Assembly (NCBI GenBank): GCA_964643995.1 | Contig: CAZXUJ010000003.1 | Location: forward strand, 65,927 to 129,926 | Length of the DNA: 64,000 nucleotides | Source of the DNA: an uncultured Candidatus Saccharibacteria bacterium | GTDB taxonomy: Bacteria > Patescibacteriota > WWE3 > UBA101185 > UBA10185 | Direction of reading: 5' to 3' | Part shown: one piece after another, positions 3,001 through 34,381 of the stretch | Numbering within the stretch: the first letter of the stretch is position 1 | Layout: every line of letters begins with the position of its first letter | Notes under the pieces: generated by a model | The model's database searches: none | Seen by the model: the letters and a program-made list of their open reading frames with translations, nothing else | What the model was told of the DNA's origin: nothing | Program-made: the position numbers and the translations under genes

Positions 3001-6000
3001 TCAAAAACCACTAGATTAGCCGTTTGAGTGCCGTTACCTTGTACTAGCAGCTGAATTTCATCATTATCCCCATCAACAGCTAATTTTGAAGATAGGGAAG
3101 CGCTACCTCCAATTATGACTTCGTCAGTTGTATTTGTTAGGTAAATAAGTCCTGTTCCTTGGGTGAATTTTGATGCACCAGCACCAATTGCAGCATCTAA
3201 GTCATCAAGCACATCTTGGACGTTTGCTCCGTTGGAGTTATTGAACTCATCAAAAGTACCGACTAAGTATGCACCCGAATCAGTTGCTCCTGTTGTTTCA
3301 CCAAGTGATGTTGTTCCGCCAAAAATAAGATCCGTGGCAGCTGTTAAGTTGAGATTGTCCCCTGAAGCCAAGGTCACATTTCCTCCTGTTACGTCAATTG
3401 TTAGATCACCGTTTGTATCCACGCTGAATCTGGCGTCTGCGGATCCATCTGCATAGGAAAGCCTTAGTTGTTCAGATGTGGCAAGCACTTCTAACTTGGC
3501 ATCAGGTGAGGTATCCGCTAGACCTATGGCACCACCAAAGTAGTTAACCGCTCCTGTATCTACCTGATATATACCGTAGTCATTAGTTATTGTTCCTGTC
3601 TCAGTTGAATCTGCTATGTATATTCCGTAGGCGTTTGTTATAGCGTTTGTAGCACTCAAATTTCTTATTTCGGAATATACTCCATATGCAGTTGTGATAG
3701 GGCCTGTGGACCCTTTGTCTACCAAAGCATATAAGCCATATGCTGAACTCAGTGTGCCTGTTCCTAGATGGTTAACGAAGGAGTTAAACCCTTTTGCATT
3801 GCCGGTGATATTGCTACTTACACTGGAATCTATAGTTGCATTACCGTCAACTCCTATATATGATGCAGAAGAGTCTGCCCCAGCTACTGCCCACGCTCTA
3901 GAAAATGTGCCATATAATGTACCCGATGTGTCAGAAAATTGTTCACTTATGTTAACCCCTGTTGTTGTACTAACTGAGCCCTGATCACCAAAAGCAGCAT
4001 TGGAGTTAACATCTAAGCTACCTCCCGAAATGGTAAAGGTATCTGTTGTACCAAAGGATATACTTGCGGTATCACTGTTTGTTGCTTCAAAGGTCAAGGT
4101 TGGGTTTGCTGACTGGTCCCCACCAAATAAGAATGTTCCAGCACTTTCATCAATGGAAAATATCGAGGAGGCTAGGGAAGTTCCACCTACAGCAAAGTCA
4201 TTTGTTGCTGTGGTAGGATATATGACACCGCCGCTGAGTGTCCATAAACCACCATTTGTTCCTGTTGCGGCATCGTACACGTCGTTGATAGCATCAACTA
4301 TTCCTTGTGTTAATGAGGCGTTTAAGGCATTATCCGCTAGAGCTAGAGGAAGTGAGGTACTTAATTGTGTGTCATCAAACAGTATGTCATCTGCTGAATT
4401 TAGTGTGATGTCGTTTGTTGCACCGTTTGAGGTTATACCGATTGTGGTACCTGATATAGCTATAGAATCACCGTCGTCTCCCAATGTAACAACTCCGTTT
4501 GCATCAAATGTTCCGTTAGCTGTGAGTGTACCAGTTGCTGTTGCAGTAGAATCGAAAGTGATAGCACTCGTTATGTTCCCTCCGCTAATGGCTATGTCTC
4601 CTGCTATTGTTAGGTTACCACCATTGGTTAGTGATAGTTGGTCAGTCCCAGCAGAATTTTCAAATACAACCAAATTGGTAGTCTGAGTGCCGTTACCTTG
4701 TACTAGCAATTGAATCTCATCATTATCCCCATCAACAGCTAATTTTGAAGATAGGGAAGCGCTACCCCCAATGATGACTTCGTCAGTCGTAGATGTGAGG
4801 TATATTAAACCGGTTCCTTGAGTCCACTTAGAGGCCCCAGAACCTACTGCAGCATCTAAATCGTTTAGGACAGCCTGCACATTTGTGCTGTTTGAGTTTG
4901 CAAATTCATCAAATACCCCAACTAGATATGCTCCAGAATCAGTTGCCCCTGTAGTTTCTCCTAAGGACGTAACCCCACCAAATACTAAATCAACAGCTGA
5001 GGAAAGGTTTAAGTTGTCATTTGTACCAATCGAAACTTCACCATTTCCCGCATCAATTGTTAGATTCCCACCTGCTGGGCCAGTTATGCTTGCCCCATCA
5101 TTTGCATCTACGAAAGTTAAATCTCCAGTGCTCCCAATATTTATGTAGTCAGTTTGTCCTATTCTGGCAGTGCCGTCATCGAGAAATTGTACGAATGCGG
5201 TACCTCCATCCTGAACAATAAAGTCTCCTGTCGAGTCTAAATCAAAAACTAAATTACTTGCTCCTAGATTTGTTTCAGTAGTGGCATCCAGATCTAAGGT
5301 GTCCTGAAGTTCGCCGTAGTCCAATATGTCATCGGCGATTGAAATGTTTACTTCATTCGCTGGAGAAGCACTCAAATTAAAATCGGTAGTAAAATCTAAT
5401 GTATCTACGTTGGCTCCAACAGGCGTATCATTGCTCTCTACATTGATAATTGCACTCGCCGCTCCAGAGTCGGTGGCGCATTCCCATGAGTCATTGGTTT
5501 CGTTCCATTTTAGTACCTCGCCATTAGCACACCCTTGTAACAAGCTAATCCCTCCTGAGAATACTTCAAGACCTGAGCCATTAGTTATGGTCGAGGAAAG
5601 TCCATTCGTAGCTGTTACGGTTTGTATAGTTAATGCTCCTGCAGATAGTGTCAGTCCGTTTCCGGTTATGTCATCTATAGTCTCAGAATTTAAAATTAGG
5701 CTGCTTGCAATTGTTAGGTCTCCAGTGTTGGAAAAATTGAACAAATCAGTTCCAGAAGAGTCCTCAAATGTAACTAAGTCCGCGGATTGAGTACTGTTTC
5801 CCTGTACTAAGAGTTGTATTTCATTCGAGTCGCCATCTACAGCTAGTTTACCTAGATTCGTATTTGAACCTATTGTTACGTTATCCGTTGAGGTTATAAG
5901 GTTTGCTATGTTACTGGTTGTTTGCCATGGCCCTGTGGAACCGGCACTTTGCCAAGATGCATTACCACTTGCATCTGATGTAAGAACGTAGCCATTCGCT

Positions 6001-7153
6001 GCACCAGTAGAAAGTATAAGTCCTGTGGTTGTGACTGTGCCACTGACATCTAGTGTTGAAGTGGGTGTATTAGTCCCCAATCCTAATCTATCAGTGCTGT
6101 CATTCCAGAAGAAGTTAACACTGTCTTGTGCAAAAGTGCTTCCATCCCCAAAATATACTCCGCCGCTTTCTGTTGTTAAACCCGATAAAACATTAATTTC
6201 ATCTGCTGTTGTGGTTACCTCGCTTCCAGCAATTTCGAACGTTCCGTCTAGATTGATAGTTCCTGTAATTTTCAGTGTGCCATTGTATGACAATTCTTCA
6301 GCAAGCCTCACTTCGGTCAAGCCATTATTGTTTACACTTACTACATCTCCTGCTATATCGAGTGAGTTTTCTAGGGTAGTTTCGGTTGTCTCGTCTATCT
6401 GGGCTAATCCTTCCAAACTTGCAACTCCAATTAAGTTGATACTTGGTGTTTGTACGCCTCCTGCTAGGTTAGCTTGCCCTGTAACATCAATTAATCCTGC
6501 TATAGAGACATCTTGACCAACAGTCAAATCTTGTTTTACGATTACATTTTGGAGGAACTCTGATGCTAAATGAAATACCATATCAAATTGTCCTAGTTTG
6601 ACGTTATAACCCAATACATCTGCCGATAATCCGGTTGAATCTACAATTAGGTTTGCTCTTTGAGCTTTTTGTTCGGCATAGCTCAGTACTCTATCTGGTT
6701 GGGAATTTCTCTTAAACCCAAATCCCATAATGGTTAATATGGTTAATGTTACTAACAAGAAAGCAGGTAGTTTGCTTCTTAAGTTTAATGGTTTAGAACT
6801 TGTGGCCTGTATTTTCACTTCTTCGGTAGCTGCCGGAAGTTTAACAGGCTGTTCTATGATTTTGTTTTGAAGGTTGTATTTAACTAATCGTTCTTTCTTG
6901 ATAAGTTTTTCTGTAGTTTCCTTTTGGATTTTCTCGAGACGTAATTCTTCTTTTAACTTTTGAATTTCTTCCAATCTAAAAACTCGGTAACCATTATCTT
7001 GTCTTATGGATGTGATTCGTAAATCTTTTTCATAGTTTCTTAAAGTTGAAGGTGATACTCCCAAAATTTGAGCAGCCTCGGATACATTTAGCATCTTGGA
7101 ATTATCAGCCTGATCTAAAGATTTATTATGTTGGACAGTATTCTTACTCATGA
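1..7153 (-). CDS. Giant membrane-anchored surface protein, 3' end beyond window start (at least 2384 aa). Has an N-terminal MerR-type HTH (about aa 10-55), a coiled/charged linker, one TM helix (LPAFLLVTLTILTIMGFGF) and a huge T/S/G/N/D-rich repetitive ectodomain with three near-identical ~110-aa repeats.
   Basis: Reverse-complement translation from the ATG at 7153-7151 (in-frame TAA 27 nt upstream) reads MSKNTVQHNKSLDQADNSKMLNVSEAAQILGVSPSTLRNYEKDLRITSIRQDNGYRVFRLEEIQKLKEELRL... with no stop down to position 1. The track omits edge-truncated ORFs. All plus-strand ORFs in 1-6500 are low-complexity antisense artefacts sharing repeated motifs. The repeat core DEVIIGGSASLSSKLAVDGDNDEIQLLVQGNGTQT occurs three times (DNA near-identical at ~3035-3135 and ~4695-4795, more diverged at ~960-1030). 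Confidence 0.8.
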
Positions 7154-7348
7154 GGGCAGCTACCTTACAAAAACCCTGTTATTATAGGTTTTTATAATGA
7201 TACAAAGTTTTATAATCAGTGTCAACAGTTTACTCGATCGTAAATTGGTCTTTTTACGCTTTCTCTAAAAGGTTTTGTAAGAAGCACCTCTTGTGCTATA
7301 CCTCCTATATTGTTGACGCTCATACTTATTAAAGGTAAGCTAAATATT

Positions 7349-8119
7349 ATGTATACTCTGCCCAAGAAGTATCTAGTATTTTTGATGCTTTTGACTATTT
7401 CTGCATATTTTGTACCGAGCACTTTTGCTACGACTAGTGTTTCGGTGTCTATTCCTATCGATGACCCTGACGCCACCGCTGGACATATCGTAACCTTAAG
7501 AAACGGCGTATATATTTTGAGCTTTTCAGCTCGTGAACCCGGCGTGTTCGGTGTTATTACAGACGATCCGATAATCTCAATTAATGATAGGTCCTTAACT
7601 AATTTCAAGTATGTTGTAACTTCAGGTGAGGTGAAAGTGAAAGTCTCTGGCATCAATGGGAATATCGAAGAGGGCGACTACCTCAGTGCTTCAAATTTAG
7701 CTGGAATTGGACAAAAGGCTTCTGGCAGTGGTCCAGTAATAGGTGTAGCTCTTGAAGACTATGCTCCTACAGACCCTAACGCTGTTAACGAGATTTCAGC
7801 ATTCCTAAATATTACCTCGGCCTTTGTTGGCGAGCGTCAAGAACAGGATCTCATTGGTTTGCTAAGAGGAGGTCTACAAGTTCCTTTCGTAACGCCGTTA
7901 ACCTCCTTTAGATATATTCTGGCGGCTTTGATAGCAATGGTCTCATTTTTTATTGGCTTTTCATCTTTTGGCAGGATATCTATTAATGGTATAGAAGCTC
8001 TTGGAAGAAACCCTTTGGCAAGTAGGCTTATAAAATCCGCAATAGTACTAAATTTCATATTTACGTTTGGGATTATGGCAGTAGGGTTAGCTATTTCATA
8101 TCTCATTCTGAGCATCTAA
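7349..8119 (+). CDS. Signal-peptide protein (~170-aa beta-rich ectodomain) fused to a C-terminal ATP synthase c-subunit-like helical hairpin. The conserved ion-binding carboxylate is replaced by Phe. An in-frame start further upstream at 7310 is also possible.
   Basis: First gene of the atp operon, directly upstream of atpF. The C-terminal 60 aa MVSFFIGFSSFGRISINGIEALGRNPLASRLIKSAIVLNFIFTFGIMAVGLAISYLILSI align without gaps to the Bacillus PS3/E. coli c-subunit loop and helix 2 ([39 protein letters not shown]), with RNP in place of RQP and F at the Glu/Asp position. N-terminus is MYTLPKKYLVFLMLLTISAYFVPSTFA. RBS AAAGGTAAG lies 10 nt upstream. Confidence 0.6.
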   Translation: MYTLPKKYLVFLMLLTISAYFVPSTFATTSVSVSIPIDDPDATAGHIVTLRNGVYILSFSAREPGVFGVITDDPIISINDRSLTNFKYVVTSGEVKVKVSGINGNIEEGDYLSASNLAGIGQKASGSGPVIGVALEDYAPTDPNAVNEISAFLNITSAFVGERQEQDLIGLLRGGLQVPFVTPLTSFRYILAALIAMVSFFIGFSSFGRISINGIEALGRNPLASRLIKSAIVLNFIFTFGIMAVGLAISYLILSI

Positions 8120-10743: not shown

Positions 10744-12963
<2,220 letters not shown>

Positions 12964-12971
12964 GATAATTT

Positions 12972-13214
12972 ATGTCATTCAACCTAACAATTCTAAGCCG
13001 AGATGGCCAAATCTTTAAAGGTGTTTGTTCCACGGTTACATCTTTCAACTCTGTTGGTGAGTTCGATGTATTGGAACATCATGCCAATTTCATTACCATG
13101 ATCAATAAATATGTAGTAGTGGATAAGAGTACTGCCAGTGAAAAGAAATTTTCACTAGAAAGGGGAGTGCTCTCCTCTAAAGGAGATACTGTTGAGGTTT
13201 TTATTCAGGATTAG
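12972..13214 (+). CDS. atpC: F0F1 ATP synthase subunit epsilon (short form, beta-sandwich only)
   Basis: 80 aa immediately after atpD. Lacks the C-terminal helical hairpin. Confidence 0.7.
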   Translation: MSFNLTILSRDGQIFKGVCSTVTSFNSVGEFDVLEHHANFITMINKYVVVDKSTASEKKFSLERGVLSSKGDTVEVFIQD

Positions 13215-13864
13215 TTACTAATAGAGACTCTAACTGAGGCACCCATTGTGGTAGATATGAAGCAGGATTTTATGTATGTTTCAGGTCTTACTTTTTGAGG
13301 TCTATTACTTTTTATCGTATTTAAAATTTCATTGAAATTTTCTACTAGTTTACTATCTTCAAAGCTTTTTTTACCGAATATCACGTGTACTATTGGTGCA
13401 TTAGCTTCATTTCTGATTTCGATTTTTCCTTGTTTCAATGAGTGAACTGCTTTTTCTATGTCGTCGGTGACTGTGCCGGACTTTGGACTTGGCATTACTC
13501 CTGCTGGTCCCAAAATTTTAGCTACCTTAGCTAGTTTAGGCATATATTTAGGTTCAGCAACCAAAACGTCGAAATCAACTTTTGGTCTAATTTCACTCTT
13601 TTCAAGCCTTACTAAGTCATCCTCAGTTAACTCTAAGTCGGCATCCTTGATTTTCTTTGATGCAAAAACCGCGACTCTGACTTGTTTACCAGTTCCATTA
13701 GGTAATGTAGTGCTTACTCTGATACTTTGCTCTGGTTTCTTGTTATCTATTCCAAGATTGAAATGTGCCTCTAGTGTTGCATCAAACTTCGTCTTGCAAT
13801 TCTCTTTAGCAAGTTTTATTGCTTCTTCGATACTATATTGCTTATCTTTTTCTAGTGTATTCAT
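13211..13864 (-). CDS. rplA: 50S ribosomal protein L1
   Basis: 217 aa, L1 family similarity. Follows rplK. Confidence 0.9.
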
Positions 13865-14301
13865 AGTTCTACCTCTACTCCCATAGATCTTGCAGTTCCT
13901 GCAATAACTTTAACGGCTTCGTTTATATCATTTGTGTTCAAATCGGGCATTTTAGCTTTAGCTATGTTTTCTAGTTGGTCTCTTGTTAGTTTACCGACTT
14001 TTTTCTTATTTGGTTCTCCTGAACCACTGGAAATTTTTAGAGCTTTTTTGATTAACCCAGCTGCCAAAGGAGTTTTGGTTATAAATTTGAAAGTTCTATC
14101 CTGATATACGGTAATAACCACTGGTATCACATCGCCGACCATACTTTGGGTTCTTGCATTGAATTCTTTGCAGAAGTCCATCAAAGGCACACCGTGTTGT
14201 CCTAATGCGGGGCCCACTGGAGGTGCGGGAGTAGCCTGCCCGGCAGGTACATTTAATTTTATATATGCTTTAACTTTTTTTTGTTTTTTCTTTTCTGCCA
14301 T
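13861..14301 (-). CDS. rplK: 50S ribosomal protein L11
   Basis: [20 protein letters not shown] motif. Confidence 0.95.
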
Positions 14302-14353
14302 AAAACCTTGTAAAATGCTTTACCTACGGGACATTATAGGTTTGGAAATTCTA

Positions 14354-14965
14354 TCACAAATTTTTAACTTGTGTAAAATCTAACTCAACAGGGGTCTCTC
14401 GTCCAAACACTGATACGAGAACTTTCAGCTTTCCTTGTTCCTCATTTACTTCTTCTACCTTACCTAAAAATTCTGCAAAAGGTCCCTCAGTGATCTTTAC
14501 TGAATCTCCAGTTGTGAACTTTGCCTCGAATTTAGGTTCATCCGATTTTAGGTATCTCACTAGTTCTTGTACTTCTTTCTCAGGTAATGGGGTAGGTGTT
14601 GATCCAGTACCAACAAATCCGGTAACTCCTCTAGTAGATCTAACCAAATGCCATGTTTCGTCACTCAAAATCATTTGAACTAAAACATAGCCGGGGAAAA
14701 GTCTTTCATCTACTTTTCTTTTTTTGCCCTCCGATACTACGATTTTCTGTTTTTGAGGGACTAAAATTTTAAAAAACTTATCAGCATATCCGATTGCATC
14801 TATACGTTGTTTCAAAACCGTGGCGACTTTATTCTCATGTCCTGAATAAGTGTGAACAACAAACCACTTTGCCATAGGGTTTGACTTGGTATTAATGATA
14901 ATAATACTTCCATCATTGATTCCGGTGTCTTTATTGGTTATGTCATTAAAATTATCTTCGCCCAT
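14354..14965 (-). CDS. nusG: Transcription termination/antitermination factor NusG
   Basis: KWFVVHTYSGHENKV NGN domain. KOW motif GxxVxVxxGPF. Confidence 0.9.
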   Translation of the reverse strand: MGEDNFNDITNKDTGINDGSIIIINTKSNPMAKWFVVHTYSGHENKVATVLKQRIDAIGYADKFFKILVPQKQKIVVSEGKKRKVDERLFPGYVLVQMILSDETWHLVRSTRGVTGFVGTGSTPTPLPEKEVQELVRYLKSDEPKFEAKFTTGDSVKITEGPFAEFLGKVEEVNEEQGKLKVLVSVFGRETPVELDFTQVKNL

Positions 14966-14983
14966 TGTCGTATTAAGAAAAAT

Positions 14984-15175
14984 TTATCCTAAATAAATAC
15001 TTAACAATTCTTTAAATATATAATCAATCCCTGCTACAAACAAGCCAACCAGTAAGCTAGCACTAATAACAAATCCAGTCAAGCGAATTGTTTCTTCTTT
15101 GCTTGGCCAGTCAACCTTTTTAAATTCTGCATATGATTCGCCAAAGAATTTTATCATGCCTAGGTATTTTACCAT
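14984..15175 (-). CDS. secE: Preprotein translocase subunit SecE
   Basis: 63 aa with a single C-terminal TM helix, immediately upstream of nusG. Confidence 0.8.
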   Translation of the reverse strand: MVKYLGMIKFFGESYAEFKKVDWPSKEETIRLTGFVISASLLVGLFVAGIDYIFKELLSIYLG

Positions 15176-15231
15176 CTTTAATTGGAAAAGATAGCTGTAA
15201 TGCCGTTCTCTACAGGTGATATACTATCCCT

Positions 15232-16234: not shown

Positions 16235-17050
16235 ATGGAACTGTTTCATGGTAACAAACATGCCTTTGAGTTAGATCGTCATATTGTGCATCACTTGTCA
16301 TTGATAGATCGTGATGCATTGGGTGTTCTAGCAATAATACAAATTGGTTCTAATCCTTCTTCCACTAAATACGTCAATTTAAAGCTAGCTTTGTGCTCAA
16401 AACTTGGTATTAAAGCCAATTCTTATCAGTTTTCAGACTCTATGCCTCACGAGGAGCTCTCCTCAGAAATAAGTAAAATTTGTTCTTCCCCAAATACCAG
16501 GAGTGTAATTATCCAATTACCTTTGCCCCAAGGTGTAGCTAAAGAAATTCTTGACCTTATACCTCTAGAAAAAGACGTCGACTCTCTGTCGGATAGTGCC
16601 CAGAAACGTTTTTACTCCGGTGAGTTCACTATGATCCCTCCCGTAGTTCGTGCCGTAAAGTATTTTCTCGAAGCCTGTAGAATGAATGTATCAGGACTTA
16701 CTGTAGATATTGTGGGAAAGGGTTTTCTAGTAGGTGCCCCCTTGGCATATTATCTTGAACACTGTGGCGCTACAGTTACGAGTTATGATGAGCATGACGA
16801 TGTTTCTGAAATAATTTTTAAATCTGATTTAGTAATATCTGCAACAGGTAGGTCAAAACTGCTGCAGGGTGGTAATTTTTACCATGGTACAAGTGTTATT
16901 GATTTTGGATCTTCTGTATTGGAAGGAAAGGTGGTGGGAGATATCAACTTGGATTCCGAAACTAGTCATTTAAAAATTCTTTCTCCATCTCCTGGTGGTT
17001 TAGGTCCATTGGTTGTTAGATTTCTTTTGATTAACCACCTTGGTTTTTAG
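16235..17050 (+). CDS. folD: Bifunctional methylenetetrahydrofolate dehydrogenase / methenyl-THF cyclohydrolase
   Basis: QLPLP motif, GKG..VG.PLA Rossmann segment, SPSPGGLGPLVV C-terminal motif. Confidence 0.9.
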   Translation: MELFHGNKHAFELDRHIVHHLSLIDRDALGVLAIIQIGSNPSSTKYVNLKLALCSKLGIKANSYQFSDSMPHEELSSEISKICSSPNTRSVIIQLPLPQGVAKEILDLIPLEKDVDSLSDSAQKRFYSGEFTMIPPVVRAVKYFLEACRMNVSGLTVDIVGKGFLVGAPLAYYLEHCGATVTSYDEHDDVSEIIFKSDLVISATGRSKLLQGGNFYHGTSVIDFGSSVLEGKVVGDINLDSETSHLKILSPSPGGLGPLVVRFLLINHLGF

Positions 17051-24603: not shown

Positions 24604-25720
24604 TTATAGTCCAAAATCATTTATGTTTAATTCTTTATGCAACATGCTACTTTCGCTAGTAGGCGTGTTTGTTGTTGTGGTTATGTTTATTGCTGATATG
24701 CTGGTATTTTCGGTTTCTGCAGTTTTTGTTATTGTGACGTCATTCTCCGGTCTTACACTTGATGGATTACCTGCGGAGTCGAGAGCTCTTACAGCATAGT
24801 ATGGTGTTCTATCACAGTGGTCATTGTCTATCGCATCTACAAATGTGTGTTCTTCGTTTGAGCCTATATCTATGGTCTCAACCCTAGTATCCTCATAGGC
24901 CTCAACCTCGGTATTGCTTGCTCTATAGATCTCCAAATAGGACGTTTCCCATTATGCTAATAGCAAGTACACCCAATAATAGTGTCGAGATCATTGCTAA
25001 AAGGGTAGTCTTTTTAATACTGCCTAAGATTCCAGCCGCTACAAAGATTAATACCGTCAAAAAGACTGTTACAACAATTATTTACCAGATTGGGTTGGCT
25101 CCAGTGTCAGGTAATCTATGTGAAGTGCTAGCTAAGACTTCTTCTATCTCTATATCAACAGTAACTTCTGTTTTTGGGGACTTGTTTAGTCTGTCTACCT
25201 CTACTTAGACTTCGGTTCCTACAAACACTCTATCTCCTGTATTGCCCTCATTCGCTAAAATATTAACCTGCCCGAATTTACCTTGGGCCCAAGCCAGGTC
25301 GTTATAGATAACTGGGGCCACCTCACTATTGATTTTTGTTTTATACGTCAACTATAATTTCACCTAGTTCCCTGCTTCCAATAGAACAATTACCGGGAGA
25401 TGCATAGGTAGGTTCTGTGACTACTATGTCTTTTATATTTCCGTGAATATTTGAGTTAGCTGTCCACGAACTATTTAAGTACTCAAAACCTTCTGGGGGA
25501 AGATCAATCAAAGATACATCTTCCAAACTGCTTATGGCTTCAAGTTTCAGTGTATAGGTAACCTAAGTATAAGGTATATAGTTTTCCTTTAGGTTTTCTC
25601 TAGCCCAAATTCCAGGGGCACCTTGGGTGTCATAGACTCTTATTCTTGCTGGTTCTCCTGAGATAAATGTGAGAGCTACCAATAATGTAAGTCTTAAAAT
25701 TGTTTTAGGCTACTAATTCA
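24604..25720 (-). pseudogene. Fragmented, probably decayed gene for a secreted Fn3/Ig-like protein. It shows only as in-frame stops and short ORFs.
   Basis: Minus-strand reading gives a signal-peptide-like ILRLTLLVALTFISGEPARIRVYDTQGAPG then a TAG stop. Short ORFs follow (25341..25526, then one with a TTG start at 24936) containing an Fn3-like C-terminus YYAVRALDSAGNPSSV. There is no continuous frame. Confidence 0.45.
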
Positions 25721-25760
25721 ATAAGAAGAGATATATCACAAATCCTTAACTTTGGTAATC

Positions 25761-26474
25761 CTATAGCGTGTAATCTTTGCCGATAAATATTATAATATCG
25801 GTTTCAGTAGGGTTTTCACCACTTGGTAATTTGGCAATTTCCGCGTCTAGTAATGTTGAAATTTTATTCATTATGCCCGCATCGAGGCTCTTATTATTTA
25901 TCACTAGTGTTCTTTCATACTCGCTTTTTGCATTTCCAATATTGATGACCTCGAATTTAATGTTTTCGTACTCTGTGCTAAGTTTTGTACTCAAAGCAGA
26001 AGCTAATCCCTGGGTGCCTGTGCTGTTATATATGCTTACTTTTATAGGTGCTATTACACCCTCTACATTTTCTTCAGGTTTTATCTCTCCCTGTTCGGTT
26101 AGTTTTATAGTCATAGTCTCGATGATTTTGTTGCTATATGGGCGGTATAGTACTGCACGTCTAGCCTTGTTATATATGAGTAACTTGTCACCGTTTTGAG
26201 CGTGAGAAAAAAACACCTGATTATTAAGTTTTTCTACGTCCTTCACCGTGGCTATTACTGGAATCTCGTCGTAGGGAACCTCTGCTAGCATGGTTACCCG
26301 ATTTAATATTTCGGCAGTGGATATCACCTCAGCTTCTTTGCTTTTGTTGTTATTTGATTTTATCTCCTTGTAGCCAATATACCCAACCAATACTATGAAA
26401 CCTACTAATATTCCCAGAACGATCACCAAACCCGCTTTAGGAAAGCCTCTTTTTGTATTTTCAATTGAAGTCAT
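25761..26474 (-). CDS. Membrane-anchored LytR_C domain protein
   Basis: N-terminal TM helix. C-terminal VSIYNSTGTQGLASALSTKL...FEVINIGNAKS matches the LytR C-terminal domain pattern. Confidence 0.7.
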   Translation of the reverse strand: MTSIENTKRGFPKAGLVIVLGILVGFIVLVGYIGYKEIKSNNNKSKEAEVISTAEILNRVTMLAEVPYDEIPVIATVKDVEKLNNQVFFSHAQNGDKLLIYNKARRAVLYRPYSNKIIETMTIKLTEQGEIKPEENVEGVIAPIKVSIYNSTGTQGLASALSTKLSTEYENIKFEVINIGNAKSEYERTLVINNKSLDAGIMNKISTLLDAEIAKLPSGENPTETDIIIFIGKDYTL

Positions 26475-28659: not shown

Positions 28660-28751
28660 TTTTTGCGCCAAAGAAGTTTACTACTGAAGAGTAGCAAATA
28701 TAAATTTCTTTGGAGCATCCCTTTTCTCATCATGTTACAATCAAGCTTGGT

Positions 28752-30371
28752 ATGTCTCTCAAAGTTTTAATCAATGGTCCAAAGGGAAGCGGTAAGTCTA
28801 CTTTGGCAAAAAACATTTATAAATTCCACCATCCTAAAGATACTTGGGTTATTTTTGATAGAGGTGTTGCCGGTGAGGAAAGACACTCTCCTCGAGTAGT
28901 TTCGAAGAAAGGTGATGCCACCCAAACTTACACCTTGGCTAATCCGTTGCTGGATGTTGTGCTGCGTATAAGAAGGTTTCTTGAGGTTCATAGATATTTC
29001 AAAGTTCTCGAATACTTCATGTTTTTAGTTACTCCGATCTATGCCTACGCGCAGTTGAACTTTTCCAAAACCATTGATGCTAAGTACTTGGTTAATGCTC
29101 AGCCACTATACTTAAGAAATCTTAAAAGACTCGGATCTTTAGCAAAAATTGGGGCACTAAGAAAACTTATGGCATGGCCGTTTCAATATGACTTTATTGT
29201 TAATGTCTCTATTAGATCAAAGGAGATATCAAAGAGGCTTCAAATACGAAAGTATGCAGAGGCGTTGCCGTACTTTGTTGAATTTGCCCGAGAAGAAATA
29301 AATTTTCAGAAGTATGTTTTGTCTAAATATTCCAATGTTGTAAACATCGATGGCTATAAGCCCTCTTATGACCTGTCCTCAGAATTTGCAGTCTACACTG
29401 AGTTAGTAGGTACTTTTTATGATGTATTAGCGAAAACGAAGCAGACATACCCAGAAACCTTTTTTATCGAGCGTCCCAACAATATCGATACTCCGGAGGT
29501 TACAAGTTATTTTGAAACCAATATTCAACCTCATGTTATCGAGCTCTTTGGTGACTCCAACACTTTTGTGAACTATGTTCTTCATTCTTATCACAGGCAA
29601 CATATATTTGTTTTTACACATGTCCTTTCTCATAACGCTGACTTCCCACTTGCTGATGAACTCGCTTCCTTAATGGTTGGAGTCTGGGGTTATTTGCTTT
29701 GGTTTGATGATGTTGTGGATAATGCGGCTACCCGCAACAATAAAGCTTCTTTAGCAGGTGTTAATACGTACAATGCAGATGCACACTTCTCTCGTGTAAA
29801 AGCATTATCCGAGGAACTTTTTGGTCGTAATCAAACTCTATGGTTATCCAAAGCTGTAAGTATAACCAAGGAATCTATGTTAAAGCATGGTTCATTGGGC
29901 TTTGATGCCCCTTATATTGATGTAGTATGTAACTACCTTGACCGTGGGTATTCATATTCTGTGTGGCCTGCTTCGATACTATCTCGAGGGTTAGGATTTC
30001 AAGATAAATTCCCCCTACATAAGTTGAATGTCTACAAACATTTTGGGGGTCAGCTGATAAACGATATTCGCGACATTAACCTTGGGAATTTTGACGATAT
30101 AAGGGTTGGTCAGGTGACAATACCTTTGTTACTTTTGCGTGACTCCTGTAGTAGCGCAGAGCGTACCAAACTTTCCTCTTTGTTCGGTCATGTTCTTGGG
30201 GAGTCCGAAAAATCCTTACTCACGAGTTTGTTTTCCAAATACAACATTCTTCAAAAGACGCAACATATAGCTAATTTCTACTTCGCTGAAGCACTGGGTA
30301 TAGTTGATAGTTCTAGTGTTATGGAACAGTCTCCTATAAAAATATGGTTGCAAGAGCGTTGCAAGAGTTAG
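28752..30371 (+). CDS. Two-domain protein. N-terminal P-loop kinase-like domain (NMP/deoxynucleoside-kinase-like). C-terminal all-helical domain with DDxxD and NDxxD motifs resembling a class I isoprenoid synthase fold. Alternative TTG start at 28710.
   Basis: Walker A LINGPKGSGKSTLAKN. DDVVD at about aa 329. QLINDIRDINLGNFDD about 116 aa later. No close family recognised by eye. Confidence 0.6.
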   Translation: MSLKVLINGPKGSGKSTLAKNIYKFHHPKDTWVIFDRGVAGEERHSPRVVSKKGDATQTYTLANPLLDVVLRIRRFLEVHRYFKVLEYFMFLVTPIYAYAQLNFSKTIDAKYLVNAQPLYLRNLKRLGSLAKIGALRKLMAWPFQYDFIVNVSIRSKEISKRLQIRKYAEALPYFVEFAREEINFQKYVLSKYSNVVNIDGYKPSYDLSSEFAVYTELVGTFYDVLAKTKQTYPETFFIERPNNIDTPEVTSYFETNIQPHVIELFGDSNTFVNYVLHSYHRQHIFVFTHVLSHNADFPLADELASLMVGVWGYLLWFDDVVDNAATRNNKASLAGVNTYNADAHFSRVKALSEELFGRNQTLWLSKAVSITKESMLKHGSLGFDAPYIDVVCNYLDRGYSYSVWPASILSRGLGFQDKFPLHKLNVYKHFGGQLINDIRDINLGNFDDIRVGQVTIPLLLLRDSCSSAERTKLSSLFGHVLGESEKSLLTSLFSKYNILQKTQHIANFYFAEALGIVDSSSVMEQSPIKIWLQERCKS

Positions 30372-30547
30372 TCTTCAGATTTCTTTTCAATTATTGTCGT
30401 AATTATTTTACTCAAATATAATTTTAACGCTATAGTAGCGGTATATAAGAAAATTGTTGACAGTACATTTTTTATATAGTAACGTTTACTTATTGAGAAA
30501 TTAATAGACTCTTTCTGCCAAACAAGAGCCAAGATCCCGCAGGAAGA

Positions 30548-30580
30548 GTGTCAACTTCTTTCGAGATGTTGGCTTTTTTT
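30548..30580 (+). terminator. Rho-independent terminator (CAACTTCT-TTCG-AGATGTTG followed by GCTTTTTTTGTTTT)
   Basis: Stem with a UUCG loop followed by a T-run. Lies 180 nt after the kinase-fusion gene. A TTGACA promoter-like element sits at 30452. Confidence 0.5.
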
Positions 30581-30639
30581 GTTTTCTGAGTGTTTGTACA
30601 AATGTACTCGGTAGTTTGTTTTTGTTTTTTGCACCTTAT

Positions 30640-31488
30640 TATTCGAATAGCCATTCTTCTAAGTCTCGAAAGAGGGTAGTAGTCCGAAAAGTATTTTTTT
30701 GACTGCTATCCTTCTTTTGAGAGTTTGCCTGCAGCTTGCTGTAGTGCCGTAAGCAGTGATGCTTCGGCTGAGTATAGTCTTGGAATTGTTTGAACTTTAT
30801 CGAGCCTGGGAGTGTCACAACTCCGATATAGCGGCTGGGTTTAGTCTCATGCTCACTGTATATTCGATTTGACCTAGTTCCGTTCTGAGCTTGCTTGCAG
30901 TTCATCTAGAAGGATGCGGTGATCGACCGCAAAGACCATATCTATGGTTTTGATCGTTCAGCTAATGTTGCTGAGCGTGCTCCGTGTACATAATGTACCG
31001 CTCCGACCAGACTGAATGAACTTCGTTGTTTTCAGCCCCCTGGTCGACCTACAGTCACGCGAAACGCTGTCATAAGTACGAACGATAACCGAAGCTTCCC
31101 TTGCGAGCGCATTGTTTTCTTAGCGTCTCGGTCATTCCTGAAGCGGGTGAAACTCTCTTGAAGCTCTGTTGCACAAAGGTGCCACTTCATCTGAAGTTTC
31201 CCCAGAAGAGGATCATGAATCTTTTCTACTTGCCCTGAAAGATAAGATTAAAAAGTAAGGTCTGCCCAAATGCACAACAAATCTTTGTGAGCATGTTCCT
31301 GCTATCAGCCTCATCTTTGTCAAACGACTTGGTTATTATGAATATTCATAGTAGTCAGATTGTTTGGCAAAGGTGGGGCTTTTTCTTTTTTTGATGGTTT
31401 GAAAAAATAGGGAATAACAAGATTTGTTATTTTTGAGACTAAGAATATACCTTAGCGCCCTGTGGATCTCAAACTTTAAACATTCAAA
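30640..31488. other. ORF-free, GC-elevated ~850 nt segment with multiple stable-tetraloop hairpin motifs. Candidate large structured ncRNA or a degraded foreign insertion.
   Basis: No ORF of 60 aa or more on either strand across 30905-31488. GC is visibly higher than the flanks. UUCG and GNRA tetraloops sit in GC stems on both strands (for example GCTTCGGC at ~30760 on plus; GCTTCGGT and CGCAAG on minus at ~31090-31110). Confidence 0.35.
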
Positions 31489-31875
31489 CTAACTCAGCTT
31501 CTCACATTTGAGAATGTTCTGAAACAATCCCACCTGTGAAAAACTACGGCCGCCAGCAACTGTTAGTCGGTAAGTCGTTTCAACCGTGAACATTTGCTGG
31601 ATTTGGATCGTCTGCCCCAAAAATTTACCGGAAAAAAGATTTGCTCCGTTATAGAGCATTTCTGTTCTTCCATTGGGGTGCATTACGGTCCAGATATCCA
31701 ACGTTCCGTTTTTGTTGTAACGCCGTTCCGTCGCAATTGCGGTCACCGTGATGGTGCGTTTACCGCGGTTTGAGTACCAGAACATCAACAGTACCAGCCC
31801 GCCAACAACAGGCGCCATGATCAAACAAGGCGCGCAAAGTATAAGCAGGCCCGTAAAAGGTCCTAAAATTTCCAT
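31489..31875 (-). CDS. Small single-TM protein (128 aa) with enterobacterial-like codon usage. Likely horizontally acquired or a contaminant.
   Basis: Strong RBS AAAAGGAGATAATGAC before the ATG. Codons CTG/GCG/CGC/ACC dominate, unlike the rest of the window. N-terminal TM helix then a soluble domain. Confidence 0.65.
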   Translation of the reverse strand: MEILGPFTGLLILCAPCLIMAPVVGGLVLLMFWYSNRGKRTITVTAIATERRYNKNGTLDIWTVMHPNGRTEMLYNGANLFSGKFLGQTIQIQQMFTVETTYRLTVAGGRSFSQVGLFQNILKCEKLS

Positions 31876-31964: not shown

Positions 31965-32038
31965 TGGCAGGGGTGGCAGGAATCGAACCCGCGCAAATGG
32001 TTTTGGAGACCATTGTACTACCACTATACGACACCCCT
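31965..32038 (-). tRNA. tRNA-Trp (anticodon CCA), CCA end encoded
   Basis: 74-nt cloverleaf folded by hand: acceptor AGGGGTG/CACCCCT, anticodon stem ATGGT/ACCAT with loop CTCCAAA, T-loop TTCGATT. Confidence 0.85.
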
Positions 32039-32115
32039 ATGTATATTGCTCTTGCATTATAGAGGTGGGTGAGATTATGAGCAATATTTACTATAAAAAA
32101 TGAAAAAAGTATTTA

Positions 32116-32191
32116 TGGAGCCCACTGGCAGGATTGAACTGCCGACCTCATCCTTACCATGGATGTGCTCTACCAACTGAGCTAAGTGGGC
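32116..32191 (-). tRNA. tRNA-Thr (anticodon GGT), CCA end encoded
   Basis: 76 nt: acceptor GCCCACT/AGTGGGC, D-stem GCTC/GAGC, anticodon loop ATGGTAA, T-loop TTCAATC. Confidence 0.85.
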
Positions 32192-32286
32192 GAGAGATCA
32201 CTTGTCAAACTTACTAAGTCATCTGGTGGCGATTCGCTTCGCTATCGCACATCAGGTTGTAAGTCTCGCTTTGCTCAACAACAACC

Positions 32287-32372
32287 TGGTGCCGGAAGCA
32301 GGATTCGAACCTGCGAAGGCATAAGCCAACTGATTTACAGTCAGTCCCCTTTGGCCACTTGGGTATTCCGGC
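32287..32372 (-). tRNA. tRNA-Tyr (anticodon GTA), long variable arm, CCA end encoded
   Basis: 86 nt: acceptor GCCGGAA/TTCCGGC, anticodon stem ACTGA/TCAGT with loop CTGTAAA, class II variable arm, T-loop TTCGAAT. Confidence 0.85.
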
Positions 32373-32461
32373 ATGCGCTCGCTAAGTCATCTGGAGGCAA
32401 TTCGTCGCTACGTTCCTATTGCACCCCATCTGACTAAGCTCACGATGTTCGCTAAGTCATC

Positions 32462-32536
32462 TGGAGCCACCTGTGAGATTTGAACTCACGACCTATCCCT
32501 TACAAGAGGATTGCTCTACCCCTGAGCTAAGGTGGC
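32462..32536 (-). tRNA. tRNA-Thr (anticodon TGT), CCA end encoded
   Basis: 75 nt: acceptor GCCACCT/AGGTGGC, anticodon loop CTTGTAA, T-loop TTCAAAT. Confidence 0.85.
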
Positions 32537-32562: not shown

Positions 32563-32994
32563 CTAAAAAAGTGAGGATATCATTGCGGGTTCATCTACAC
32601 TATCTGCATCATCTATTTTCTCAGTTTCAAAAGTGCCTTCATTTAGTAGGGAAGACTTAATCTCGGTCGTTTCTCTCTCCATTATCTCAAGTATTCTTTC
32701 TTGGTGGGTTTCCATCTTTATCATACGTTCTTCCCAACGCTTTTGTGAAGCATGTAAAAGTGCCATGGTTAGGAATATTATGACACTAGTGACTGTATGA
32801 AAGATAATATACCAATGTTCGCCAAACCCGATCACAAAACCGCTCAAAAGCCAAACCACAACAATTACTAAAGATATAGAAAACCACATGGGAGAGCTCA
32901 AGACCTTGCTGGCAACCTCAGAAATGTTTTCAAAAACATTTACGGTTTTTTTCTTTTTAATAGATTTGTAGTTGTAAAAACTTGATTTGGGCAT
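32563..32994 (-). CDS. Hypothetical small membrane protein (2 TM helices plus a C-terminal acidic coiled region)
   Basis: 143-aa ORF. Hydrophobic helices WFSISLVIVVVWLLSGFVIGF and IIFHTVTSVIIFLTMALL. Confidence 0.55.
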   Translation of the reverse strand: MPKSSFYNYKSIKKKKTVNVFENISEVASKVLSSPMWFSISLVIVVVWLLSGFVIGFGEHWYIIFHTVTSVIIFLTMALLHASQKRWEERMIKMETHQERILEIMERETTEIKSSLLNEGTFETEKIDDADSVDEPAMISSLF

Positions 32995-33064: not shown

Positions 33065-34381
33065 ATGAACGGAACACTTAGAATTCATGGTGGAAAGAAA
33101 CTAAAGGGTGAGGTTGTCCCCATTCCAAATAAGAACGCTATTGTAGCCACATTGCCTGCTTGCATACTTTCTGATGAAACAATTGTTTATTATGATTTAC
33201 CAGACACCTCCGATGTTCAAAAAATATTAAATATTCTACGTAAGTTGGGTGCTGACGTCGTCTCAGACAACCTATCCAAAGTAACAATCTGTTGTAAAAA
33301 CGTTAAAAGTTACGAAATTGATTACGAACTTGGTTCACAATTCAGAGCATCAATAATGTTTGCTGGTCCGTTGTTAGCTCGTTTTGGTCGAGTTTCCGTA
33401 CCAATGCCGGGGGGTTGTGTTCTTGGTGCGCGATCAATTGCTGCTCATATAGACTCTTTTAGCAAAGTAGGAATTAAAGTAGAGTACAAAAAGGACACTA
33501 TAGAATTTATTGCTCCCAAAAAACCACTTAAAGATGAGCTGATTTGGCAAACAGAGGCCAGTGTTACTGCAACAGAAAATGTTGCTATGTATTTAGCAGG
33601 TGTTTCAGGCAATGTGACTATAATTAACGCCGCCTCTGAACCTCATGTTTCACAACTTTTACAAATGCTACAAACCATGGGTGCGAGGATAGACGGTATA
33701 GGATCTAATCGAATTACTATCGAGGGTAATTCTAAGCTTGGTACCTGCGCGTACCATCCAGAACCAGACCAAGTAGATATTGCAGGTTTTATCGTGGCTG
33801 CAGCTATAACCAAGGGAAAGATCAAAATCAAGGGTGCTAACAAGTTTGACATCGTAGGTGGTCTTCTCAATGTATTTGAAAAGTTTAACATCGCAATAGA
33901 TCCAATAGGTGACGATTTAGTTGTTGATGGCTCAGGAGATATTTGGATAGATCTAGAATCATCCGGTTTTCCGCTTGCTGGTAAAGATCTCCCAAAACTT
34001 AATCCACAACCATGGCCGTCTTTTCCTGTAGATGTTTTGCCAGTTATGGCCACCTTAGCTTGCAAAATGGATGGAAAGCTACTTTTACAGAATTGGATGT
34101 ATGAAACCGGATTGGACTTTATACGTGAACTTAACAAACTTGGTGCCAATATCTTTATGTGCGACCCCCAAAGAGTCATTGTTAACGGTCCTATAGAATT
34201 TAAGGGAGGTGGTATTGTTTCTCCTGGGATTATCCAAGCCTGTAAAGCAATATTTCTCGCGGCACTTTGTGACGACGTTGTTACTGTCTTGCACGGTACC
34301 GATGTTTTGAAGAGACGTTATCCTGACATTGTCAGTGTTTATAAGAGTCTTGGTGCTGATATTGAAGAAGTCAAAAATTGA
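33065..34381 (+). CDS. murA: UDP-N-acetylglucosamine 1-carboxyvinyltransferase
   Basis: 438 aa with EPSP-synthase-fold MurA similarity throughout (for example GGCVLGARSIAAHID, active-site Cys region). Confidence 0.9.
   Translation: MNGTLRIHGGKKLKGEVVPIPNKNAIVATLPACILSDETIVYYDLPDTSDVQKILNILRKLGADVVSDNLSKVTICCKNVKSYEIDYELGSQFRASIMFAGPLLARFGRVSVPMPGGCVLGARSIAAHIDSFSKVGIKVEYKKDTIEFIAPKKPLKDELIWQTEASVTATENVAMYLAGVSGNVTIINAASEPHVSQLLQMLQTMGARIDGIGSNRITIEGNSKLGTCAYHPEPDQVDIAGFIVAAAITKGKIKIKGANKFDIVGGLLNVFEKFNIAIDPIGDDLVVDGSGDIWIDLESSGFPLAGKDLPKLNPQPWPSFPVDVLPVMATLACKMDGKLLLQNWMYETGLDFIRELNKLGANIFMCDPQRVIVNGPIEFKGGGIVSPGIIQACKAIFLAALCDDVVTVLHGTDVLKRRYPDIVSVYKSLGADIEEVKN

Follow-up and report, generated by a model that had tools for sequence, protein, structure and literature searches.

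Positions ~30440-31393 of the window, the whole 64-kb stretch of DNA analyzed here and the reference for all coordinates, are likely to constitute a self-contained plus-strand gene for a large structured non-coding RNA (ncRNA) of ~0.8-0.9 kb. The host lineage is WWE3 of the candidate phyla radiation, and the RNA matches no known Rfam family. The guess of a large structured ncRNA, made in the initial annotation of this DNA, was strengthened by a conservation exceeding that of the flanking genes, non-coding indels, strand-specific covariation, and an apparent high abundance of the RNA.

No credible ORF was found in 30372-31488. As originally described, 30905-31488 contained no ORF of at least 60 aa on either strand, and only an 88-aa minus-strand ORF (30639-30905) was present in 30372-30905. 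A raised GC content had been claimed for the whole interval, which held for its core only: the interval has a GC content of 39.8% vs 38.7% in the whole window, while the GC-rich part is limited to the core (about 30650-31270), with 47.0% GC at 30700-31250. Among 551-nt segments across the 64 kb, 0.3% reached this core value, and these segments were all located on the core or the tRNA array, the GC maxima of the window, except for those with the adjacent starts 57661 and 57671 inside an ORF. The array is composed of four tRNA genes (Trp, Thr, Tyr, and Thr) at 31965-32536 on the minus strand, as first annotated, and is ~570 nt from the RNA element in the window.

The same element was found in the related WWE3 contigs L022 and L024-L027. 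The comparison set thus included three distinct sequences of one narrow WWE3 clade, namely the window, L022, and the L024 lineage, where L024 is ERZ22157947 NODE_4763. The window shares an identity of 88% with L022 over 980 nt and 75% with L024-L027 over 1056 nt, and the core identities are 93.4% (L022) and 75.2% (L024 lineage). Among three adjacent protein genes, DNA identities were 74-79% and 60-68%, respectively. Indels of 1, 4, 7, and 8 nt were observed in the element, and no ORF kept its frame in all three lineages. The element is therefore conserved above the neighboring coding DNA with indels of a non-coding kind, a pattern generic to structured ncRNAs. The following parts of the inferred gene were distinguished:

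30440-30485, plus strand: conserved promoter-like block, near-invariant in the three lineages, with TTGACA at 30457-30462 and the invariant TTTTTATATAGTAACGTTTA (TATATAGTAACG at 30473-30484)
30505-31393, plus strand: whole inferred RNA, ~890 nt as the primary transcript, with the 3' limit set at 31393 by the terminal hairpin and U-run
30519-30581, plus strand: 5' element, a near-invariant, terminator-like hairpin with a terminal GGC-U7
30583-30650, plus strand: variable spacer with large indels in the alignments, between the 5' element and the core
30653-30915, plus strand: 5' core domain, with the long-range helix 30653-30661/30907-30915 as its closing stem (RNAalifold and pair counts) and containing a 26-bp hairpin (30664-30722), a GUGA-loop hairpin (30746-30768), and a branched subdomain (30770-30892)
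30916-30951, plus strand: two short hairpins, the invariant GCGGU-GAUCG-ACCGC and a second at 30932-30951
30953-31086, plus strand: central branched domain, part of covariance model R1, with helices 30953-30971/31066-31086, 30975-30981/31053-31060, 30983-31000, 31004-31010/31040-31046, and 31012-31035
31094-31203, plus strand: most conserved part, hairpin 31094-31144 followed by hairpin 31145-31203
31218-31303, plus strand: 3' region of less certain helices
31307-31393, plus strand: terminal 34-bp hairpin (31307-31341/31346-31380), an inverted repeat, followed by UUUUUCUUUUUUU

An RNAalifold consensus contained 237 pairs, with 96.8% of cells paired, and its core of ~650 nt included ~25 helices. 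In this structure, 18 pairs were changed on both sides, compared with 7.0 +/- 2.1 after shuffling (0/500) and one to three with slid partners. The structure predicted from the window sequence alone gave a similar picture, with 15 double-sided pairs vs 6.6 +/- 1.9 shuffled (0/500) and one to four slid. Single-sequence folding yielded -267 kcal/mol (z -5.1) for the plus strand and -211 kcal/mol (z -2.7) for the minus strand. When covariation was expressed as a bonus, the sign of which is the reverse of the RNAalifold energy term (-7.0 kcal/mol in the 237-pair consensus run), the plus strand scored +6.8 vs -1.9 +/- 2.8 in shuffles, and the minus strand scored -6.4, not above shuffles. Conserved pairing is hence specific to the plus strand. 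Compensatory changes on one strand and above controls are a further generic mark of structured ncRNAs, and here they provide moderate support, as the covariation counts are small because the comparison covered only three sequences of one clade.

Compensatory changes occurred in the 5'-domain helices 30664-30722, 30731-30742, 30746-30768, 30770-30892, and 30826-30861, and at four pairs of the central domain. Outside its apical loop, hairpin 31094-31144, which contains an asymmetric internal loop (CCU/UUCCU), does not vary, and 31094-31203 includes the 20-21-nt invariant blocks CGAAGCTTCCCTTGCGAGCGC and CTCGGTCATTCCTGAAGCGGG. The 3' region includes a variable insertion site, with +8 nt in L022 and +7 nt in L024. 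The terminal hairpin has many G-U pairs (-43 kcal/mol, z -9.0) and, while conserved, shows one compensatory change and three wobble changes; together with its U-run, it looks like an intrinsic terminator. An inventory of stable tetraloops, part of the initial annotation, was not borne out by the consensus structure, where a single GNRA loop (GUGA, 30756-30759) and no UNCG loop were present. Specifically, the GUAA and UUCG named at 30746-30768 are stem positions of the GUGA-loop hairpin, and the motifs named at 31090-31110 belong to a minus-strand reading, whereas the conserved structure is on the other strand.

At the 5' end, the spacing from TTGACA to any clean -10 hexamer is non-canonical, and TTGACA/TAACGT was not among the canonical promoters listed by a simple promoter scan. 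The 5' end of the RNA probably lies near 30505-30509, ~20 nt farther downstream than expected from the conserved TAACGT. A terminator-like hairpin with a T7 run had been noted previously and was indeed present at about 30548-30581. The 5' element to which it belongs has two possible folds, either the plain CAACUUCU/AGAUGUUG hairpin or a longer form where the A-rich strand is paired with the U-run. Its folding z was -3.0 to -3.9 across all three lineages, and its apical pair, as read from the alignment, alternates between U-A and C-G. This element may act in partial termination or as a stem that protects the 5' end.

Contig names and contig tips were the source for abundance, RNA ends, and tails. 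In ENA, nine short contigs (604-886 nt) were 100% identical to L024 and limited to its positions 6739-7592. Coverage was 307-773x in eight of these element-only contigs, which come from eight independent assemblies (ERZ22157238, -240, -241, -242, -950, -952, and ERZ23868861/-862); genomic contigs of the same lineage had 6.6x (a 13-kb contig carrying the locus) and 6.3x (a 5.9-kb contig). The high-coverage assemblies were absent among the six contigs listed (of seven) that carry the neighboring gene. Two contigs, L053 and L054, were 100% identical to L024 from 6739/6743 to 7574/7592, corresponding to window positions 30505/30509 to 31308/31326, so that the abundant form in the L024 lineage would correspond to about 30505 to 31308-31326, or ~805-820 nt. 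The RNA-like contigs of this lineage break at the 5' base of the terminal hairpin. In three contigs, an Illumina read-2-side adapter was fused to the 5' tip in the plus orientation, and seven carried differing A-rich 3' tails, with a total of 304 nt (A 54%, U 25%, G 19%, and C 2%). Heteropolymeric tails are a known product of PNPase (PMC5872136). The adapter-capped sense 5' ends and the C-poor, A-rich tails suggest an abundant RNA. From these contigs we infer its transcription, ends, and tailing, and that the libraries were apparently RNA-derived, with the RNA very abundant in them.

The remaining seven contigs start at L024 6913-6983, downstream of both the 5' hairpin and the spacer. These starts, together with a first hairpin and U7 that form a near-invariant textbook intrinsic terminator, make it possible that the locus contains two units: a short RNA of ~75-90 nt (30490/30505 to 30581; a small RNA or attenuator-type leader), and a large RNA driven by a separate promoter within TTGCACC..TAATAG just upstream of 30653. 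The poor conservation and large indels of the spacer between the two blocks would also fit such a division. However, L053 and L054 span the 5' hairpin and the spacer into the core without a break, and the starts at 6973-6983 lie just 3' of the 26-bp hairpin, where reverse-transcriptase stops or assembly breaks are expected. A start after TAATAG would additionally come close to removing the bases needed for helix 30653-30661/30907-30915. Division into two RNAs was therefore considered unlikely, and a single transcription unit is preferred.

The boundaries of this unit were shown to be its own by the comparison with L022, where similarity to the window extends from the promoter-like block to just past the terminal hairpin. 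In that contig, minus-strand genes of 978 aa and 207 aa lie between the element and the 539-aa gene, and the similarity starts at the promoter-like block despite a different, opposite-strand gene upstream. In two of the three lineages, the gene directly upstream and on the same strand encodes a 553-aa P-loop/polyprenyl-synthase-like protein, with a polyprenyl-synthase-like domain. From this arrangement alone, the element could be a structured 3' UTR or processed tail of the mRNA of the 553-aa gene, or its cis-regulatory element. Such an origin is quite improbable, as the L022 element is located 3.6 kb from the gene and behind the two opposite-strand genes with its promoter-like block still conserved, the RNA-like contigs begin at the equivalent of 30505 and not within the gene, and the high-coverage assemblies are missing among the listed contigs with the gene, as described above.

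The downstream gene encodes a 128-aa protein without a family match, and unrelated genes of 121 aa or 140 aa occupy its place in other lineages; murA and murB are located 1.6 kb from the element. The adjacent gene had been called foreign-looking, which the gene order conserved in related WWE3 contigs contradicts. Matches to virus families were confined to a membrane protein at 32563-32994 and, in the 553-aa protein, the P-loop end; no phage-structural or integrase match was found among the flanking genes, and scans of the neighbors for defense systems, NCBIfam, and phage families returned P-loop noise only. A phage or island context beside tRNA genes, also proposed at first, was not supported: tRNAs are near the element in the window and L022 and not in L024-L027, and the flanks are not phage-like. 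In twenty WWE3 and related genomes, neither a homologue of the element nor a tRNA array was found within +/-10 kb of MurA.

In two assemblies, gene callers annotated the minus strand of the element with ORFs of 121 aa and 154 aa, and a 38-aa plus-strand ORF is common to the window and L022. The element might thus be taken for a decayed gene, a mobile-element remnant, or the mRNA of a small protein, all of which are very improbable. Although the window is 93% identical to L022, it interrupts the minus-strand ORF; in L024, a 4-nt insertion puts the 38-aa ORF out of frame; and the conservation of the element surpasses that of the true genes next to it. As for a mobile remnant, the 64-kb window contained no second copy, terminal inverted or direct repeats, or notable internal repeats of the element, and a BLAST search of the element region gave no match in phage or plasmid records. 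The lack of a conserved ORF and an identity above that of adjacent genes likewise speak against the degraded mobile-element remnant or frameshifted gene considered in the initial annotation.

Searches for known families and further homologues returned no relative beyond the three lineages. At the gathering score, Rfam matched only the four tRNAs in the whole window. A permissive Rfam search (E up to 10) of the window and the L024 copies gave chance matches only, mostly miRNA-like on long hairpins; the large-RNA families GOLLD, ROOL, HEARO, OLE, and raiA, named initially as candidates, were not matched even at E = 10. Group I and II introns, RNase P RNA, tmRNA, SRP RNA, and rRNA fragments had no match by Rfam or ARAGORN. 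In JGI metagenomes, the invariant 18-mer GGTCATTCCTGAAGCGGG occurred at 23 loci, which were taken as chance because none was matched by the nhmmer profile of the element at E up to 1. Viral contigs scanned with three invariant blocks gave zero, zero, and two matches, the two being chance. The core covariance model recovered only the three known copies in 566 kb of collected loci, a protein search with the antisense-ORF profile added no lineage, and no exact match was found for the antisense ORFs of the window itself. In the literature on WWE3, Patescibacteria, and the candidate phyla radiation, no such large RNA was found described, and no mention of the sample accessions was found. Other identities considered and rejected were a small-ORF mRNA, a GGA sponge of the CsrB type, domain V of a group II intron, and, within the invariant hairpin, a K-turn (by our own reading, tandem G-A is absent).

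Covariance models could in principle overlook a strongly diverged member of a known RNA family, be it OLE, ROOL, or GOLLD, RNase P, an intron, or a piece of rRNA. RNAs of the candidate phyla radiation are often atypical, and the element shares general traits with OLE, being large, rich in helices, apparently abundant, and adjoined by an isoprenoid-pathway gene. This relationship is nevertheless very unlikely, given that no large-RNA family, rRNA, RNase P, or intron was matched by Rfam at E up to 10 and that a length of ~800-890 nt fits none of them. An assembly chimera or contaminant join, an early concern, can practically be dismissed: although the Logan contig of the source sample (SRR8893623) ends in the tRNA array, 146 nt past the 128-aa gene, the region and both of its junctions recur with 100% identity in the Logan assembly, the gene-then-element order recurs in four independent L024-lineage data sets, and the element is present in a third lineage. 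The end of that contig only shows that the tRNA region is hard to assemble.

For the single large RNA gene favored here, the promoter-like block at 30440-30485 would drive transcription from a start at or just upstream of 30505-30509. The polymerase would pass the 5' hairpin and its U-run into the ~650-nt core of ~25 helices, and the RNA would end at the 34-bp hairpin and U-run. The product probably accumulates to high cellular levels, with partial trimming at the base of the terminal hairpin and the subsequent addition of heteropolymeric A-rich tails. Its role would most likely be that of a stable folded RNA, for example a ribonucleoprotein (RNP) scaffold or an RNA-only assembly, like OLE, ROOL, or GOLLD; protein coding or pairing with a neighboring mRNA is an unlikely mode of action. 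By analogy, an OLE-like RNP scaffold is the best guess, a weakly supported one, and a tie to the cell-envelope genes and the polyprenyl-synthase-like neighbor is guessed. The most far-reaching interpretation is a new class of very large ornate RNA (~0.8-0.9 kb), restricted to a clade of ultra-small WWE3 bacteria and among their most abundant transcripts, that acts as an OLE-like RNP, self-assembling particle, or ribozyme with a link to the metabolism of both polyprenyl lipids and the cell envelope; taken as a whole, it is tentative and rather doubtful.

To our knowledge, structured bacterial RNAs that are large (>500 nt) and have no assigned function are few, and OLE, GOLLD, and ROOL each proved structurally unusual. 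Genomes of the candidate phyla radiation are small and streamlined (PMC9698310), and the retention in such a genome of a 0.9-kb ncRNA more conserved than its neighbors argues for an important role. If the RNA does represent an ornate class, a costly RNA machine would have been retained in a minimal genome. Should its apparent abundance be confirmed, the RNA would lend itself to cryo-EM and pull-down work and would serve as a clade marker in metatranscriptomes. On the practical side, 'hypothetical proteins' of 121 aa and 154 aa already deposited in public protein collections arise from antisense translation of the RNA.

One of the closest known systems is OLE RNA (ornate, large, extremophilic; RF01071). 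Both are large multi-helix ncRNAs with long invariant stretches. OLE is among the most abundant cellular RNAs, and the WWE3 RNA may be very abundant as well. The cluster in which the OLE gene lies has links to isoprenoid and cell-wall genes (PMC12265935, PMC10898510), and the WWE3 RNA lies beside a polyprenyl-synthase-like upstream gene with murA and murB 1.6 kb away. In contrast to OLE, the WWE3 RNA has no match to the OLE model, is ~800-890 nt rather than ~600 nt long, and occurs in WWE3 rather than Bacillota. It is also not adjoined by a conserved OapA-like membrane-protein gene, as its downstream genes vary by lineage, and it forms a separate transcription unit, whereas OLE is part of a long operon.

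ROOL (RF03087) and GOLLD (RF01998) are likewise large ornate RNAs, and the distance of ~570 nt between the WWE3 RNA and a tRNA array recalls the proximity to such arrays that is typical of both. The WWE3 RNA differs from them by the absence of a model match, of nearby phage genes, and of true matches in viral contigs, and by the lack of tRNA proximity in the L024 lineage. ROOL and GOLLD RNAs form homo-oligomers (PMC12286853); speculatively, the palindromic GAUC in the GAUCG loop at 30921-30925 of the invariant GCGGU-GAUCG-ACCGC hairpin could mediate a comparable self-association. HEARO, the omega-RNA of IscB-TnpB, resembles the element in being a structured RNA of several hundred nt in an ORF-free stretch, but the WWE3 element has no Rfam match or adjacent IscB, TnpB, or transposase gene, and it is single-copy without terminal repeats. 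Finally, both ends of the WWE3 RNA resemble intrinsic terminators in that a U-run follows a GC-containing hairpin, at 30551-30581 and at 31307-31393. The 34-bp terminal hairpin, however, far exceeds what termination needs and is conserved base for base, which suggests a further role in stability or processing.

A 553-aa gene (28710-30371, plus strand) and a 128-aa gene (31489-31875, minus strand) flank the interval 30372-31488. Sequence comparison indicates that this interval probably holds a genuine and conserved gene for a structured RNA on the plus strand, in agreement with one reading in the initial annotation, which had proposed a large structured noncoding RNA: the element is more conserved than the adjacent genes and includes covarying pairs. 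Its description as ORF-free was borne out, as the sole ORF of at least 60 aa is an 88-aa minus-strand frame. The proposed GC elevation applied to the core at 30700-31250 (47.0%) and not to the whole interval (39.8% vs 38.7% in the window). Only 0.3% of 551-nt windows reached 47.0%, and these fell in the core or the tRNA array, except for two adjacent windows within an ORF (starts at 57661 and 57671). Stretches of 0.8-1.0 kb with no ORF of at least 100 aa were also found at 24936-25761 and 3027-4000, neither of which matched Rfam at the gathering score; the former showed no GC rise in a GC profile of part of the window, and the latter lay outside the profiled part. The parts of the locus are as follows.

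30457-30462, plus strand: TTGACA of a promoter-like block, with invariant TTTTTATATAGTAACGTTTA (three-lineage alignment)
Plus strand: 5' element with almost no variation, which closes with the first hairpin and a U7 run (alignment)
30551-30581, plus strand: first hairpin-plus-U-run, found where a terminator-like hairpin and T-run had been placed (30548-30580)
30583-30650, plus strand: variable spacer, followed by the core (alignment)
31307-31380, plus strand: 34-bp hairpin, then UUUUUCUUUUUUU (-43 kcal/mol, z -9.0)
31965-32536, minus strand: tRNA-Trp, Thr, Tyr, Thr array beyond the 128-aa gene, accounting for the four tRNAs reported nearby

The element is known so far from three WWE3 lineages only. 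A copy was identified at 15247-16279 of L022, a contig of the closest lineage (88% identity over 980 nt), and further copies in L024, L025, L026, and L027, contigs of a more distant lineage from four independent data sets (75% over 1056 nt). The contigs encoding homologues of the 553-aa protein (clusters P0002 and P0003) are those that carry the ORF-free element; in L024-L027, it sits directly downstream of the homologue gene, where no gene is called over 1.0-1.1 kb. Identity to the window was 93.4% for the RNA core and 74-79% for the three adjacent protein genes in L022, and 75.2% and 60-68%, respectively, in L024. In L022, the RNA gene is separated from the polyprenyl-synthase-like gene by two inserted minus-strand genes of 978 and 207 aa (11637-15201), and a 140-aa minus-strand gene (16269-16691) is inserted right after the terminal hairpin of the RNA. 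This local rearrangement leaves the RNA cassette intact. Similarity between L022 and the window begins about 40 nt upstream of TTGACA and ends after the terminal hairpin; the element has thus been kept as a cassette that has boundaries of its own.

The pattern of change indicates that the element evolves as functional noncoding sequence. The core has indels of 1, 4, 7, and 8 nt as well as stretches of 20-25 nt without any change (TAGAAGGATGCGGTGATCGACCGCA, CGAAGCTTCCCTTGCGAGCGC, and CTCGGTCATTCCTGAAGCGGG). No ORF frame is kept across all three lineages: the window lacks an intact version of the 121-aa ORF that was called on the minus strand of L022, and a 38-aa plus-strand frame is shifted in L024 by a 4-nt insertion. 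Antisense translations of the element stand in public protein collections as 'hypothetical proteins' of 121 aa (P0004; L022 15806-16171, minus strand) and 154 aa (P0005; L053-L061, nine short ENA contigs). These are spurious gene calls and useful handles for finding the RNA.

The single-sequence fold gave -267 kcal/mol (z -5.1) on the plus strand vs -211 kcal/mol (z -2.7) on the minus strand. RNAalifold folded the core at -218 kcal/mol into 27 helices with 237 pairs; the covariation energy term was favourable (-7.0 kcal/mol), and 96.8% of cells were paired. Both sides had changed in 18 pairs, vs 7.0 +/- 2.1 in shuffles (0 of 500 as high) and 1-3 when the partners were slid. Because RNAalifold uses covariation to choose its structure, the count was repeated on a predicted structure for which the window sequence was the only input (293 pairs, 92.9% paired), where 15 double changes were found vs 6.6 +/- 1.9 in shuffles (0 of 500) and 1-4 when slid. 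Alignment-column shuffles gave z values of -14.8 (plus) and -8.8 (minus); such shuffling does not preserve dinucleotide content, which inflates these values. Counted as a bonus, with the sign opposite to that of the energy term, covariation on the plus strand was +6.8 vs -1.9 +/- 2.8 in shuffles, while the minus strand (-6.4) was no better than shuffles. The covariation signal was thus confined to the plus strand; with three sequences, this evidence of conserved structure is moderate. The earlier inventory of stable tetraloops did not hold: GUGA (30756-30759) is the sole GNRA loop, the stem of that hairpin contains the quoted GUAA and UUCG, and the motifs quoted on the minus strand are on the wrong strand. 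An invariant plus-strand hairpin, GCGGU-GAUCG-ACCGC (30916-30930), has a self-complementary GAUC in its loop, speculatively a candidate site of loop-loop self-association.

With the spurious 121-aa ORF as a search handle, the 154-aa 'protein' was found on the nine ENA contigs (604-886 nt; SPAdes coverage 307-773x in eight). They match L024 at 100%, solely over 6739-7592, the element itself, while the 13-kb L024 contig of the same accession series has 6.6x coverage. No high-coverage assembly was among the six contigs listed (of seven) with the neighbouring gene, and the accessions of the high-coverage contigs were not found in the searchable literature. In plus orientation, an Illumina read-2-side adapter is fused directly to L024 6743, 6978, or 6983 in three contigs; the fourth adapter fragment is too short for its type to be assigned, and one contig has no adapter and starts at 6739. 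In dUTP-stranded libraries the sense read is read 2, which fits a plus-strand RNA with its 5' end near window 30505-30509. The starts at 6978-6983 lie just 3' of a 26-bp hairpin, where stalling of reverse transcriptase would be expected. At the other end, the genome match of all nine contigs stops at L024 7574-7592, where the terminal hairpin begins, and seven independent assemblies (L053-L059) carry 3' tails there, each different. The tails (304 nt in total; A 54%, U 25%, G 19%, C 2%) are C-poor heteropolymers unlike genomic sequence. They resemble those made by polynucleotide phosphorylase (PMC5872136) and look like non-templated PNPase-type tails on 3'-processed RNA. The coverage, adapter ends, and tails are indirect evidence, from which we infer that the RNA is probably abundant.

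Alternatively, the first hairpin, predicted to be a good terminator, would end a separate transcription unit upstream of the core, and seven contigs do start downstream of it. However, one long transcript is favoured by L053 and L054, which continue from the 5' element across the spacer and on into the core, and we consider two units improbable. An AT-rich minus-strand hairpin, AATAACAAATCTTGTTATT, with a T-run (31414-31440) is probably the terminator of the 128-aa gene, so that the two genes would converge with back-to-back terminators.

The closest relatives of the MurA encoded at 33065-34381 (51-61% identity) are from MAGs labelled candidate division WWE3, so the host is a WWE3 (Patescibacteria) bacterium; a few carry Saccharibacteria or Anaerolineaceae labels, which we take to be mislabels. 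The neighbours are of envelope-type housekeeping function (MurA, MurB, and two LytR_C proteins, with GH113 and an ion channel further upstream), and a PMT_2 gene adjoins such genes in a same-sample Logan contig and in syntenic contigs. Phage and plasmid records gave no match to the 30372-31488 region itself, and a defence-system scan of the neighbours returned nothing beyond P-loop noise. Neither an element copy nor a tRNA array was found in the 20 MurA-linked loci searched, and none of 14 related WWE3 loci scanned had tRNAs upstream of murA; L022 keeps tRNA-Trp alone, about 1.2 kb from the RNA. After the window's array, Thr(UGU)-Tyr-Thr(GGU)-Trp, comes the uncharacterised, membrane-like 128-aa protein in place of tuf or secE-nusG, genes that often go with such arrays.

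Full-length homologues of the upstream 553-aa protein form only three clusters among 5.8 billion proteins, the other two being P0002 (80% identity) and P0003 (62%). In the homologues, which are 539-540 aa long, the alignment begins at residue 15; the TTG at 28710 is therefore probably 14 codons upstream of the true start. The protein looks like a fusion in which a P-loop at the N-terminus (kinase or ABC-like Walker A, residues ~5-58) is joined to a divergent polyprenyl synthase domain at the C-terminus (residues ~262-550), and it includes FDDVVDNAATRNNKAS, which resembles the first Asp-rich motif. Transitive homology supports this assignment for the C-terminal 290 residues: 26 remote relatives were found, about 200-370 aa long (mostly about 320-350 aa), seven of the eight tested passed the Pfam threshold for PF00348, and the best solved-structure match was octaprenyl-diphosphate synthase (E = 0.028).

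Apart from chance hits, mostly miRNA-like and on the hairpins, no Rfam family matched the window copy or the L024 copy, even at E = 10. By the Rfam models, the element is therefore not an intron, RNase P, tmRNA, SRP RNA, or rRNA. Membership of GOLLD, ROOL, OLE, HEARO, or raiA, the families named for checking, is likewise rejected, as those models define them. Nothing in Rfam release 15 matched the family, and no description of it was found in the literature searched. Our best guess, by analogy, is that the RNA may act as a stable scaffold or ribonucleoprotein. OLE is the closest analogy, being large, rich in helices, and very abundant. This is analogy and not membership; in L022, the polyprenyl-synthase-like gene does not adjoin that of the RNA. 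Isoprenoid and cell-wall genes are associated with the OLE gene cluster (PMC12265935, PMC10898510), and the polyprenyl-synthase-like C-terminus of the element's upstream protein recalls that isoprenoid link.
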